46,869 bases of DNA, from assembly GCA_037139695.1 (NCBI GenBank), contig JBAXFX010000002.1, forward strand, positions 1-46,869. The letters run 5' to 3'. Under the pieces are notes generated by a model. It ran no database searches and had not been told where the DNA came from. It saw nothing but the letters and a program-made list of their open reading frames with translations. The stretch comes from Candidatus Moraniibacteriota bacterium (GTDB lineage Bacteria; Patescibacteriota; Minisyncoccia; Moranbacterales; UBA1568). Of this stretch, positions 4,626 to 35,346 are shown piece after piece. Within the stretch, counting starts at the first letter, position 1; each line of letters begins with the position of its first letter. A program made the translations under genes and the position numbers.

Positions 4626-4808
4626 GACGGTGACAACCCTTTCGGGCCATCCAATAGCCTTTCGACTATCGACCTAAGCAATAAGTACCGGTCGTGAGAC
4701 CGTTTTTATTGCTTAGGGTTTCAGGCCATGCCATAGCAGAAGCTACGGTTTAGGCCTATAATTCAGTTGTTGTTTGTATTTTGCTCTAATTTCGCTAAAA
4801 AATCAAAT

Positions 4809-32213: not shown

Positions 32214-32373
32214 ATTTCTTTATTTACAATATTCTCATTTTCCCACTTCAGTCGGAAAAATACCAGCATTCGGACAAAACAAGCCAAAAAACGGCTTATA
32301 AATAGATTCCTTCGAGTGTTTGTATATTGATCCTCTTCTTATATTGTATCAGGTATACTCTTTTCCATTCGCT

Positions 32374-32402
32374 TTGTCTTTCGGTATATTTTCGTATATA
32401 AT
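32374..32402 (+). promoter_or_regulatory. promoter of the LexA-methyltransferase gene with overlapping GTATAT repeats
   Basis: TTGTCT (32374-32379), a 17-nt spacer and TATAAT (32397-32402). GTATAT motifs at 32384 and 32394 lie inside the spacer and -10. Further GTAT(A/C) copies occur at 32322, 32346 and 32353. Confidence 0.5.
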
Positions 32403-32434
32403 AAGATTGCAGCAAAATTACATGAGTCAATAAT

Positions 32435-34021
32435 ATGAAAAACGTCACCAAGAGACAAAAGCAGATACTTGACTTCATTCAGGAATACATCACGGCGAAT
32501 GGCATATCCCCAACTATCGACGAGATCAGAAAGGAATTAAGGCTCCGATCAAATTCAACAATTCATCAGCATATAGCAATGCTGAAAGGAAAAGGCCTTC
32601 TAGAAAAAAATACCGGGTTGGCAAGAGGAATAATACCAAAGAAGGTTCCAGGATTTACCGTTGGCATACCGATAATCGGAAAGATAACCGCTGGACAACC
32701 GATAGAAGCGATCGAAACCGAGTGGGAACTCATCCAGGTTCCAAGGGAGGGGTTAAAAAATCCAAAGGACTACTATGCTCTCCATGTTTCAGGAAACAGT
32801 ATGATTGATGAAGGCATTTTTGATGGTGACATTGTCGTTATCAAGCGACAGTCTGTTGCAGAAAATGGCCAAACGGTTGTCGCAATAATAGATGACAACG
32901 AGGCGACATTAAAGAAAATCTATAGGGAAAAATCAAGATTTCGACTAGAGCCACGAAATCAGATGCTATTGCCTTTTTATAGAAAAGAAGTGGAAATCCG
33001 AGGAGTTGTCGTACAAATAATCAGAAACATTTCCCAACAAAAAAATATTGATACGCCTTCAAAAAAGAAATCGTGCAAATTTCGGACCCTTGATCTATTC
33101 GCTGGAATCGGTGGCATTCGGATCGGATTTGAAAAAGCCGGATTTGAAACGGTATTCGCCAATGATTTCGAACCGCATTGCAAAGAAACGTACGATTTGA
33201 ACTTCAAGAGATCAAAACTTATCGTTGAAGATATTCGGAAAATAGGGATCGCTGATCTCCCAGAATTCGACTTTCTCCTCGGAGGATTTCCTTGTCAGGC
33301 ATTTTCAATCGCGGGATACCGAAAAGGCTTTCAAGACGAAAAAGGTCGCGGAAATTTATTTTTTGATGTGGCTAGGATAATCGACGCCAGAAAACCGACC
33401 GGCTTTCTTCTTGAAAACGTGAAAAATCTCAAAAGTCACGACGACGGGAAAACATTTAAGATTATCGAACGGACTTTGCTGGATCTTGGCTATCACATCA
33501 AGGTCAAGGTGTTAAACAGTATGGAATACGGAAACGTTCCGCAAAACAGAGAGCGGATTTACATCGTCGGATTTAAAGATAAGGATTATTGTGATAAATT
33601 CTCTTTTCCTGAGCCAAAAAAACTATCCGTTAAAATAACCGATTTGCTCGAAAAGAACGTGCCTGAAAAATATTACTATAACGGAAAACCACTTTTTGAA
33701 AAATTGAAGGGTTTTGTAAAAGAAGAGGGCCGGGTGTATCAATGGCGAAGACAGTATGTCCGAGAAAACAAAAAAGGTGTTTGCCCCACACTGACCGCCA
33801 ATATGGGAATGGGTGGCCACAATGTCCCTATCGTTAAGGATAAAAAAGGAATCAGAAAAATCACGCCCCTTGAATGTGCCAGACTTCAAGGATTCCCACT
33901 AAACTATAAGCTCCCGAAGATAGCAGATTCGGCTCTTTATAAGCAATTTGGAAATTCTGTCACGGCAACCGTCATTGAGGCAATCGCGAAACAGATGATG
34001 AAAGCCGTAAAAAACACTTGA
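32435..34021 (+). CDS. LexA-like repressor (wHTH + S24 autopeptidase) fused to a DNA (cytosine-5) methyltransferase
   Basis: Residues 1-200 align with E. coli LexA as I recall it: GIPIIGKITAGQP (Ala86-Gly87), VSGNSM (Ser122), ATLKK (Lys160) and IRGVVVQIIRN. Residues 216-528 carry C5-MTase motifs FAGIGG, GFPCQAF (Cys287), ENVKNL, QNRERIYIVG and QFGNSV. It is a single uninterrupted ORF. Confidence 0.85.
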   Translation: MKNVTKRQKQILDFIQEYITANGISPTIDEIRKELRLRSNSTIHQHIAMLKGKGLLEKNTGLARGIIPKKVPGFTVGIPIIGKITAGQPIEAIETEWELIQVPREGLKNPKDYYALHVSGNSMIDEGIFDGDIVVIKRQSVAENGQTVVAIIDDNEATLKKIYREKSRFRLEPRNQMLLPFYRKEVEIRGVVVQIIRNISQQKNIDTPSKKKSCKFRTLDLFAGIGGIRIGFEKAGFETVFANDFEPHCKETYDLNFKRSKLIVEDIRKIGIADLPEFDFLLGGFPCQAFSIAGYRKGFQDEKGRGNLFFDVARIIDARKPTGFLLENVKNLKSHDDGKTFKIIERTLLDLGYHIKVKVLNSMEYGNVPQNRERIYIVGFKDKDYCDKFSFPEPKKLSVKITDLLEKNVPEKYYYNGKPLFEKLKGFVKEEGRVYQWRRQYVRENKKGVCPTLTANMGMGGHNVPIVKDKKGIRKITPLECARLQGFPLNYKLPKIADSALYKQFGNSVTATVIEAIAKQMMKAVKNT

Positions 34022-34027
34022 TAGTGA

Positions 34028-35194
34028 TTAATCTTCGGGTTCCTCTTTAGAAGTCTGATTTTCGCCAGTAAATCTTTCAAATGATCCGATCTTTGTAAAA
34101 TCAATATCGTATTTTCCCTCTTCGTTCTTGTATAATACGACCGAGTCAAGGCCGATTCGGCGAAGTTTGTCATATGTGAGCAATTCCCGTTCTTTGAGGT
34201 TGAGAACATCCCGTAGCAACCAATTCCCAAGAGCGGAATTCGGATTGCTCATAAGCGCCTTCGAACCGTCTTGGCATACTTTTGCACTCATTTCTGAACC
34301 GTTCGGAAGCAATAATATGAAGGGTATATCCCGTGGTGGAAAAAATCCAGGAAACTTGTCGTGAATCCACGAGGGAATCCTAATATAGACTTCGTCTGAT
34401 ACTCGGGCACGACCACCGGCATTCCATTGATTCAGACCGCTTTTCTCCGGCACCAGCTTCTCTCCTCCTTTCATTGAATACAACGGTAAATAGACATACT
34501 CACGAAGCCTTGACTCCGATTGAACCAATCCGTCTTTTGTTTTTCCGAACAATTCAGCTAAGACGTCGAAAGGATTCTCTAAAATTTCAACGGGGAAATC
34601 ATATAGAATGGATGCGGTGGAAAATCGCTTATAGAGCGTACTCTTCGTCACGTTGAAAGCGTATTCATTCAATCCATCTTCAAAAGAAATGACGTTTTTT
34701 GAGGATTGCCGTATATCTCGCATCGCATCCAACTGTACCGCATGCATCGGGGTTTCATACACGAGTATCCCCTTCTCTTTTCGCGTTACGCAATGATAAA
34801 TCATTTCATCCAATCCAAATATCCGTTTTGTCGTCTCCAACCGTTCATTTCTCAATTCCGCGACCTTTCGCAACTTTTCTTCACCGCTAAGATCCCTGAA
34901 TAACGAGTGTTCACTATTAAATTCCGCTATTTTCTGTAGCGTCGAACCATTTTTCTCAAGAAACGTCTTTATGCCTATACCTAAACCAGCTTTTGAAGCA
35001 TCGGCAGAGCAGTCCGTTCGTGAAAGATTTTCAGCATTAAAGGATTTACAGAAAAGATTTTCCGCTATCCGATATTGAATATATGGCTCATTGCTTTCGG
35101 AGAAAAGACGAGAAAGGGCACCTACTGTTTTCAGCATTTTCAAATAATACTGAATTTTTTCATCATCCTGTGTATTGAGAAACATACGTCTCAC
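34028..35194 (-). CDS. putative type II restriction endonuclease with B3-like (pseudobarrel) C-terminal DNA-binding domain
   Basis: It converges on the MTase with 6 bp between the stops and shares its low GC. The N-terminal half has a PD-(D/E)XK-like segment SADASKAGLGIGIKTF. The C-terminal segment VSDEVYIRIPSWIHDKFPGFFPPRDIPFILLLPNGSEMSAKVCQ...LGNWLLRDVLNL follows the B3 pattern known from EcoRII-N and BfiI-C. The likely start is ATG 35185. Confidence 0.55.
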   Translation of the reverse strand: MRRMFLNTQDDEKIQYYLKMLKTVGALSRLFSESNEPYIQYRIAENLFCKSFNAENLSRTDCSADASKAGLGIGIKTFLEKNGSTLQKIAEFNSEHSLFRDLSGEEKLRKVAELRNERLETTKRIFGLDEMIYHCVTRKEKGILVYETPMHAVQLDAMRDIRQSSKNVISFEDGLNEYAFNVTKSTLYKRFSTASILYDFPVEILENPFDVLAELFGKTKDGLVQSESRLREYVYLPLYSMKGGEKLVPEKSGLNQWNAGGRARVSDEVYIRIPSWIHDKFPGFFPPRDIPFILLLPNGSEMSAKVCQDGSKALMSNPNSALGNWLLRDVLNLKERELLTYDKLRRIGLDSVVLYKNEEGKYDIDFTKIGSFERFTGENQTSKEEPED

Positions 35195-35346
35195 TTGATA
35201 AGTTGATTTCTATTTCTATTTTCCCACCAAAAGAAGGGCTTGTAAAGGGGAAATTTCCGAGTGTTTTTATGTTCGATCTTCTGCCGACCATGAACGACGG
35301 TCGTGTCAATATCGCGTTTCTCATTACGAAAGGCTATACTGGGGCC

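Follow-up and report, generated by a model that had tools for sequence, protein, structure and literature searches.

Introduction

Restriction-modification (R-M) systems need methylation of DNA ahead of restriction, yet not so much of it that incoming phage DNA is protected as well, and the known solutions to this balancing problem comprise C-proteins, methylases with short helix-turn-helix (HTH) regions, antisense RNAs and the proteolytic restriction alleviation of Type I systems, in which the restriction subunit is degraded by ClpXP after DNA damage. Among mobile elements, lambda CI and SetR are S24-type repressors whose cleavage is stimulated by RecA. In methylases of the SsoII class, the regulatory region is an Xre-like HTH of ~70 amino acids (aa) that recognizes a palindromic operator and is not accompanied by a protease domain, and we know of no damage-responsive off-switch described for systems of this type. 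These C5 methylases (the class of M.SsoII, M.Ecl18kI, M.EcoRII, M.MspI and M.ScrFIA) bind through the N-terminal HTH to an operator overlapping their own promoter and repress their own synthesis (PMC3874152). The subject of the present analysis is a gene in a 46,869-nucleotide stretch of DNA from a Candidatus Moraniibacteriota bacterium (contig JBAXFX010000002.1 of assembly GCA_037139695.1, positions 1 to 46,869; hereafter, the window), in which a complete LexA repressor and a C5 cytosine methyltransferase are joined in a single polypeptide. Judging from its sequence and genomic context, this protein probably serves as the methylating component of a Type II R-M cassette acquired by horizontal transfer; it would repress itself through its LexA head and be released from repression, upon DNA damage, by self-cleavage.

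The fusion appears to work like the SsoII-type autoregulatory methylases without being a member of that class. It is likewise a C5 methylase with an N-terminal DNA-binding domain and a candidate operator that overlaps its own core promoter; however, the regulatory part is a complete LexA of ~200 aa, as opposed to ~70, that includes the S24 domain and an intact cleavage site, the operator is a direct repeat with an 11-bp period rather than a palindrome, and the genes are convergent, such that the endonuclease has its own, operator-free promoter. With LexA proper (TIGR00498, the direct-repeat lineage of Patescibacteria), the fusion shares alignment over the full length, the catalytic dyad and scissile bond, and the promoter and operator, but it continues into a 310-aa methylase located on a mobile R-M cassette, and no wider regulon was seen in the loci compared here (80 related loci, with ~1.19 Mb of DNA fetched in all). 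As in R-M systems controlled by C-proteins, a dedicated transcription factor would time the expression of the R-M genes, and in many relatives of the cassette the endonuclease gene is preceded by a 75-aa HTH_3 gene, whereas the window copy has no C gene and its regulator is covalently part of the methylase, on whose promoter it would act. The likeness to SOS-controlled toxin-antitoxin modules, CI and SetR is that DNA damage, through RecA-stimulated cleavage of a repressor of the S24 type, would change how strongly a module of selfish or defensive character is expressed; there, the repressor is a protein of its own, whereas here it is fused to the antitoxin-like methylase. Finally, the proposed shift from restriction toward protection of unmodified host DNA resembles Type I restriction alleviation, although here self-cleavage would act by lifting the transcriptional repression of the methylase gene. 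What appears to be new is a variant of methylase-autoregulated R-M in which a complete LexA comes with a conserved operator and a code that relates helix to operator. In a 2013/14 review of how R-M systems are regulated, the HTH methylases are listed but no LexA/S24 fusion is, and LexA is mentioned only in connection with toxin-antitoxin modules, namely the SOS-controlled symE, tisB, dinJ-yafQ and yafNO (PMC3874152); a limited literature search found no published description of the LexA-methylase architecture, and a later one is possible.

A LexA repressor and a C5 methyltransferase in one protein

The gene is a single open frame of 528 codons with no interruption, as seen in the list of open reading frames and in the translation (coordinates of all features are given in Table 1). 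Three Pfam domains are recognized in the product, all with scores well over the curated cut-offs: LexA_DNA_bind (PF01726; residues 1-65 match positions 1-65 of the 65-position profile, 1.4e-17), which can also be aligned to the LexA structures 1lea and 1jhh, Peptidase_S24 (PF00717; residues 79-193, 6.7e-28) and DNA_methylase (PF00145; residues 216-522 match positions 1-323 of 324, 1.9e-90). In NCBIfam, residues 1-199 score 187 bits against the cut-off of 111 for the 'lexA' equivalog TIGR00498, and the methylase part scores 331 bits with the dcm family TIGR00675. In phmmer searches of proteins with solved structures, residues 1-198 can be aligned from end to end with LexA of Thermotoga maritima (3k2z, 8e-34) and of Escherichia coli (7b5g/1jhh, 1.7e-28). 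In the latter alignment, Ala86-Gly87, Ser122 and Lys160 of the fusion correspond to Ala84-Gly85, Ser119 and Lys156 of E. coli LexA, respectively.

Along its whole length, the methylase half can be aligned with M.HhaI (2.5e-60). Motifs I (FxGxG), IV, VI, VIII (QxRxR) and X are all present; FAGIGG, QNRER and GNSV are legible in the translation, and PCQ (residues 286-288) and ENV (327-329) are invariant in 81 of 81 relatives. In sequence terms, the window protein is both a LexA and a Dcm-type methylase. The original prediction, made from the letters of the window alone, had proposed the three-domain architecture, the cleavage site, nucleophile and general base of the LexA part and the five methylase motifs, and each of these assignments is borne out by the profile searches and alignments. 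The same holds for the basic linker that was placed between the S24 and methylase domains: residues 199-215 are the least conserved, length-variable segment of the protein (column conservation of 0.48, compared to 0.78 for the S24 domain and 0.85 for the methylase). The linker contains no internal start codon, and therefore each methylase molecule would carry the LexA module.

The fusion family in Patescibacteria

A search of 5.8 billion proteins yielded upwards of 120 clusters of ~525-aa proteins, 72-86% identical to the fusion, that show the same three domains and come from many independent assemblies; for the window protein itself, no exact match was on record. The named members of these clusters belong to lineages of Patescibacteria (candidate phyla radiation) and are labelled either 'transcriptional repressor LexA' or 'DNA (cytosine-5)-methyltransferase 1'. 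A full-length relative is encoded in at least 557 of the 185,579 species-representative genomes of GTDB, nearly all of them Patescibacteria, with a patchy spread. The reading frame is maintained across the linker in every relative despite changes in length. The original prediction had raised the questions of a frameshift or assembly join at the lexA-methylase junction and of the same architecture among metagenomic proteins, and both have clear answers: a frameshift or join is excluded by the independent clusters and genomes, and the architecture defines a large, conserved family.

In an exhaustive search of 1.84 billion representatives clustered at 50% identity, the family is reduced to what is essentially a single representative (P0121) together with fragments, which points to a single origin of the fusion family. 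A phage origin is not supported, given that only free-standing lexA, and no fusion, was found in IMG/VR.

A second, rare class of fusions, of ~1,042 aa (P0212, P0391-P0393), combines LexA and S24 with a different C5 methylase and an Eco57I-like N6 methylase. The methylase part belongs to a ~852-aa family that is found mainly in Bacteroidales and lacks LexA, and this class would represent an independent recurrence of the LexA-methylase fusion. Its members have a convergent partner gene of 395-400 aa, accompanied in locus L191 by a C-protein-like HTH_3 gene, and an operator that is an inverted TTCGG-N6-TTCGG located after the -10 hexamer in L189 and TTCAG-N6-TTCGG in L191. Two other gene arrangements were encountered among the relatives. 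The proteins P0256 and P0235, close relatives of the methylase domain, have an N-terminal Bsp6I-type endonuclease domain and are accordingly single-chain R-M proteins. In locus L035 (1176-3374, minus strand), 3 kb from the fusion, an S24 LexA-like gene (192 aa, 29% identical to the LexA part of the fusion) immediately precedes an N6_N4 methylase gene, which is another pairing of a LexA-like protein with a methylase.

Promoter, candidate operator and recognition helix

The loci of the family share a promoter layout that consists of a -35 element TTGnnn, a 17-nucleotide spacer that coincides with TTCGG-N6-TTCGG, a -10 hexamer TATAAT, a short leader and the ATG. The exact TTCGG-N6-TTCGG occurs once per locus, 40-56 nucleotides before the ATG, in 59 of the 80 loci, and 84 of its 89 exact copies in the fetched DNA are upstream of lexA or fusion genes (5 are elsewhere). 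In the window, the layout is represented by a -35/operator/-10 unit at 32374-32402, within the segment (~32310-32410) in which the original prediction had expected the promoter, and no further operator copy is found beyond chance.

The same promoter and TTCGG-N6-TTCGG precede 14 free-standing 199-aa lexA genes whose products are 55-60% identical to the LexA module. These genes were retrieved, along with 52 fusions, when metagenomes were scanned with a 199-aa free-standing LexA from IMG/VR (55-56% identical to the LexA part of the fusion) as the query. Because the promoter and operator are shared with free-standing lexA, the fusion gene looks like an autoregulated lexA that retained both and gained, in frame at its 3' end, a methylase.

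Binding of the repeat by the LexA head is most strongly indicated by the covariation between the recognition helix and the half-sites in 157 genes. Genes with the helix ST[IV]H[EQ]H (n=84), the class that includes the window, have an exact TTCGG/TTCGG in 77 cases and single-nucleotide variants in the others, never TA or GA; those with ST[AS]HYY (n=26) have TTCTA/TTCTA in 26 of 26; and those with STAHHH (n=20) have TTC[GT]A in 19, often inverted and after the -10 hexamer. The period is constantly 11 bp, and the two half-sites change jointly. This pattern supports binding of the LexA head to the direct repeat in its own promoter and hence autorepression. Direct-repeat LexA boxes with the same geometry, GTTC-N7-GTTC, occur in Alphaproteobacteria (PMC8565304), and a study of LexA in Patescibacteria is listed, in a paper that cites it, among the cases of evolved direct-repeat recognition (PMC7739468).

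Several further observations concern the surroundings of these promoters. An TGTGGATAAC box is present ~21 nucleotides upstream of the operator, in either orientation, in most fusion loci; it contains the 9-mer TTATCCACA, which we take to be the DnaA-box consensus, and is replaced by TTGTCCACA in the free-standing lexA genes. The box occurs in 121 copies in 1.2 Mb of the loci, against ~10 expected by chance, and the 39 copies away from lexA genes are mostly located just upstream of other promoter-like TTGAC...TATAAT pairs, so that TGTGGATAAC may be an element generally found upstream of promoters in Patescibacteria. Downstream of the free-standing 199-aa lexA genes (L087-L100, e.g., L087 2501-4409) there are conserved genes for 271-aa and 87-aa proteins, neither of which has a match in Pfam or PHROGs; in L087, lexA is divergent from genes for a MazG-like protein, a C5 methylase and an HNH nuclease. 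Several of the free-standing lexA genes reside on contigs of 7-9 kb that are classed as viral by IMG/VR (L084, L085, L175, L176). A scan of viral contigs with the operator plus -10 pattern added two free-standing lexA genes to the set; its other matches were due to chance or unrelated, such as the tandem TTCGGTTATAAT repeats right after a terminator-like hairpin in unrelated phage contigs of IMG/VR (L170, L173, L181-L184), which match the operator pattern by accident.

A probable R-M cassette with interchangeable partner genes

In the window, the fusion gene is part of a two-gene island of ~3 kb that is located between a DUF1294 gene and priA and contains ~40% guanine plus cytosine (GC), compared to ~55% in the flanks. 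The second gene, convergent with the fusion and separated from it by 6 nucleotides between the two stops, encodes a putative Type II restriction endonuclease. It has a full-length match to the REBASE-derived REase_II model of PADLOC (PDLC03479, 1.5e-110), and its homologues carry the name 'NgoFVII family restriction endonuclease'; together with the MTase_II match of the fusion, this substantiates the R-M context that the original prediction had assumed. In the list of open reading frames, the endonuclease starts at a GTG at 35194 instead of the ATG at 35185. The AlphaFold2 model of the protein has a pLDDT (predicted local distance difference test) score of 85, and in Foldseek comparisons its B3 domain superposes on the B3 domain of R.NgoAVII with cognate DNA (template modelling score 0.7, root-mean-square deviation 2.1 A), whereas for the N-terminal catalytic domain Foldseek gave weak HincII-like matches and nothing confident. 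Searches of the PDB by sequence and of PHROGs gave no match for the endonuclease. Its putative promoter contains no TTCGG operator, and accordingly co-repression of restriction and modification from a single site was rejected for the convergent arrangement.

Comparison of the 80 loci shows that the upstream flanks differ in all of them and that the gene next to the fusion is convergent wherever this neighbour could be grouped. These partners fall into at least 8 unrelated families, including Bsp6I-like (27 loci), PD-(D/E)XK (8 loci) and NgoFVII-like (7-8 loci) proteins, with several others unknown; the two commonest families and the window's own partner have nuclease domains. The check for co-occurrence with an endonuclease that the original prediction had suggested thus gave a qualified answer: a partner is present and convergent in nearly all cases, but many unrelated families occur in that position. 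A 75-aa HTH_3 controller-like gene is often found upstream of the partner, and sometimes a Vsr gene is close by. The changing flanks, the low GC content and the constant methylase combined with interchangeable partners indicate that the cassette is a mobile, probably horizontally acquired Type II R-M unit. It is flanked by an imperfect direct repeat of ~70-100 bp, with the blocks TATTyyyATTTTCCCAC, CAAAAnAnGGCTTrTAAA and CGAGTGTTTkTATrTT and a 37-nucleotide indel; the right copy contains the putative endonuclease promoter, the left copy is upstream of the DUF1294 gene, and the repeat may be a scar of insertion or duplication.

Two of the related arrangements deserve mention. Locus L167 (4866-7158) has the same priA-def-fmt-GroES synteny as the window and an endonuclease that is 87% identical; between priA and the endonuclease, where the window has only the segment 35186-35340, it contains two extra genes that are absent in the window, one for a 169-aa protein of unknown function and the other for a Bro-N domain protein. 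In two divergent relatives, L069 (1550-2647) and L078 (6553-7554), the NgoFVII-like endonuclease gene is co-directional with the fusion and starts ~10 nucleotides past its matched region in an operon-like arrangement, in which the endonuclease would come under the LexA-type operator.

Probable methylation target

The host part of the window is depleted of GCNGC (98 sites observed versus 148 expected under an order-3 Markov model, z = -3.9) and of GCSGC (z = -3.8), which are the most depleted among the 16 palindromes of the form XYNY'X', whereas GCGC is not (z = 0.08). Bsp6I cuts GCNGC and NgoFVII cuts GCSGC, the closest relatives of the methylase include fusions with Bsp6I-type endonucleases, and the methylase hardly varies in its target-recognition region, whichever the partner (columns 434-466 are invariant). 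Because of the Bsp6I- and NgoFVII-type partners and the depletion of these sites, GCSGC/GCNGC is the probable target of the fusion methylase, and the family appears to pair a single methylation specificity with interchangeable nucleases. A HhaI-like GCGC target, which was suggested by the similarity to M.HhaI and by the presence of GCGC in many leaders, is less likely given the same partners and depletion pattern. The island contains no GCSGC site, and its sole GCNGC is a GCAGC at 32409-32413, 7 nucleotides downstream of the -10 hexamer and close to where transcription of the fusion gene is expected to start.

Proposed regulatory circuit

In the circuit that we consider the most plausible, the LexA head, dimerized through the S24 domain, would occupy the direct repeat that fills the spacer between the -35 and -10 elements and occlude RNA polymerase, such that the methylase represses its own synthesis in the manner of the SsoII/EcoRII-type methylases with their short N-terminal HTH. 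Upon DNA damage, RecA filaments on single-stranded DNA would stimulate cleavage at Ala86-Gly87, which would detach the DNA-binding head and derepress the promoter. The remaining S24-methylase body would still methylate and could, in addition, poison the intact repressor by forming inactive heterodimers. The outcome would be a burst of methylation in response to breaks, including those made by self-restriction, or to unmethylated sites left by repair synthesis, i.e., a Type II counterpart of restriction alleviation that protects repair tracts. Unbalanced R-M activity induces SOS (PMC3874152), and the circuit would therefore provide negative feedback on self-restriction. In a naive host, where the repressor is absent upon entry, the methylase would be made first, and the endonuclease would be expressed from its own operator-free promoter.

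We infer, in this scheme, that damage-triggered self-cleavage raises the methylase level. The more specific proposal that RecA-triggered cleavage would turn the autorepressed methylase constitutive, with the LexA box of the lineage allowing the cassette to join or supply SOS regulation, is tentative, and we would put it somewhat short of an even chance. The original prediction had also considered that cleavage could serve targeting, by separating the head from the S24-methylase body; here the evidence points elsewhere, to autorepression of the gene's own promoter and not to targeted methylation.

Protease competence and alternative explanations

The alternatives to this circuit differ in the role that they assign to the LexA part. 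It could be a scaffold for DNA binding and dimerization that provides autorepression, with no cleavage in vivo and no coupling to damage. Autorepression alone suffices in the SsoII/EcoRII-type systems (PMC3874152), and conservation of the S24 domain is high overall, such that invariant residues carry little weight among the closest relatives. However, in a sample of 155 LexA modules that extends from 80% down to 47% identity with that of the window, Ser122 and Lys160 are invariant (155/155 each), Gly87 is present in 154, and the residue at position 86 is either Ala (148) or Cys (7), whereas just 25 of the 120 S24 positions are this invariant; the cleavage residues are retained in the second, apparently independent fusion class as well. 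Ala-Gly (LexA and CI) and Cys-Gly (UmuD) are the residues found at cleavable S24 sites, and LexA-like proteins that do not cleave usually lose these residues. From this pattern, we infer that the S24 domain of the fusion is a working autoprotease, and a pure scaffold seems quite unlikely. Alternatively, the fusion could be, or double as, the master SOS repressor of the cell, with a wider damage regulon (recA, polymerases) and the methylase as an add-on to a housekeeping LexA. In favour of this view are the equivalog-level score of residues 1-199 in NCBIfam, the operator shared with the free-standing lexA of the same lineage, the listing of Patescibacteria LexA with direct-repeat recognition in the paper cited above (PMC7739468), with cross-talk to the host SOS regulon being possible, and the fact that the 46.9 kb of the window contain no other lexA. 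Nevertheless, this view is unlikely: the gene lies inside a low-GC island next to a restriction enzyme, the flanks differ in every genome while a convergent partner always travels along, the distribution of the family is patchy, in the DNA fetched, the window included, the operator hardly occurs outside the promoter of the gene itself, and locus L035 carries a separate LexA-like gene as well. The remaining explanation, an artefact caused by a frameshift, by mis-assembly or by read-through of neighbouring lexA and dcm genes, has a negligible probability. Hundreds of assemblies, made independently and from many sources, show the same architecture, with a linker that varies in length yet stays in frame and has no internal start codon; the clusters, genomes and constant frame refute the artefact, and nothing was found in its favour.

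A number of points nonetheless weigh against the self-repressing, damage-released methylase. The second half-site of the window operator is TTCGT, not TTCGG, owing to a one-base deletion that the closest relative (86% identical) has as well; the window copy also lacks the TGTGGATAAC box upstream, and its regulation may be weaker. The helix classes are clades that reflect perhaps 2-3 independent switches, so that the covariation counts overstate independence. The invariance of the catalytic residues could in part be due to requirements of folding or dimerization. Operator control may extend beyond the gene itself to other genes. Neither the window nor any of the Patescibacteria loci fetched contains a recA gene. 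The specificity of the methylase is drawn from its partners and from site depletion, and its nearest solved relative, M.HhaI, recognizes GCGC. Finally, the AlphaFold2 model of the fusion (from a 31-sequence alignment) has a mean pLDDT of 52, with ~75-80 in the LexA part and a poor methylase, and is uninformative on the arrangement of the domains.

Other features of the window

Apart from the cassette, the window has two matches to RNA families and these two alone: the Rfam LOOT RNA at 4632-4756 on the minus strand (80.9 bits, gathering score 46.4) and tRNA-Gln(CTG) at 1777-1849 on the plus strand.

Table 1. Features of the LexA-methylase locus and of related loci; positions refer to the window unless another locus is named
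Feature	Position	Strand	Basis and remarks
Fusion gene: LexA (HTH + S24), linker, C5 cytosine methyltransferase	32435..34021	+	528 aa; frame, domain matches and relatives
LexA winged-HTH DNA-binding domain, residues 1-65	32435..32629	+	PF01726, alignment to LexA structures, helix classes; recognition helix STIHQHI at residues 41-47
S24 autoprotease/dimerization domain (predicted), residues 79-193	32669..33013	+	PF00717, LexA and UmuD matches in the PDB
Ala86-Gly87 codons, predicted scissile bond	32690..32695	+	Alignment to E. coli LexA
Ser122 codon, predicted nucleophile	32798..32800	+	Alignment to E. coli Ser119
Lys160 codon, predicted general base	32912..32914	+	Alignment to E. coli Lys156
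Basic linker between S24 and methylase, residues 199-215	33029..33079	+	Conservation and translation; variable, no internal start codon
C5 cytosine methyltransferase domain, HhaI-like, residues 216-522	33080..34000	+	Pfam, M.HhaI, PADLOC MTase_II (1.1e-121)
-35-like hexamer TTGTCT of the fusion promoter	32374..32379	+	Sequence; TTGnnn at the same position in relatives
Candidate LexA-type operator TTCGGTATATTTTCGT	32380..32395	+	Direct repeat TTCGG-N6-TTCGT with 11-bp period; one mismatch to TTCGG-N6-TTCGG
-10 hexamer TATAAT	32397..32402	+	Sequence; conserved in relatives
Low-GC island with the two-gene R-M cassette	32214..35340	.	Composition profile, flanking genes
Left copy of the imperfect direct repeat flanking the cassette	32226..32330	+	Repeat families D2 and D3; pairwise alignment
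Right copy of the imperfect direct repeat flanking the cassette	35207..35275	+	Repeat search, pairwise alignment
Convergent Type II restriction endonuclease (predicted), NgoFVII family	34028..35185	-	385 aa from ATG 35185; PADLOC, Pfam, homologue names
B3-like DNA-recognition domain of the endonuclease, C-terminal	34127..34468	-	Pfam RE_NgoFVII_C (1.4e-13)
Putative endonuclease promoter, TTTACA-17 nucleotides-GAAAAT	35218..35246	-	Sequence; common to the 86%-identical relative L081
Fusions of the second class	L189 3001-6126; L191 2167-5301		Loci examined
Examples of the TGTGGATAAC box	L001 2060-2070; L056; L074	either orientation	Absent at ~32350-32370 of the window and in the closest relative

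Implications

Automated annotation of these proteins as either 'LexA' or 'DNA (cytosine-5)-methyltransferase 1' hides the fusion and may skew censuses of SOS regulons and of R-M systems. The covariation of the helices HEH/HQH with TTCGG, HYY with TTCTA, and HHH with TTCGA/TTCTA amounts to a naturally occurring code by which LexA proteins of the direct-repeat type recognize their operators, and the compact protein, its promoter and the operator variants are testable in E. coli. The family is abundant in Patescibacteria, as judged by the number of species representatives that encode it, in a lineage of tiny, uncultured bacteria that is hard to study experimentally and that, to our knowledge, largely lacks CRISPR. 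If the proposed circuit is correct, a cleavable LexA-methylase would tie the control of Type II R-M directly to damage sensed by RecA, such that self-inflicted breaks and repair synthesis would automatically raise protection. This would be a previously undescribed Type II 'restriction alleviation' circuit, with a bearing on the control of autoimmunity, the establishment of R-M cassettes in a new host and post-segregational killing.

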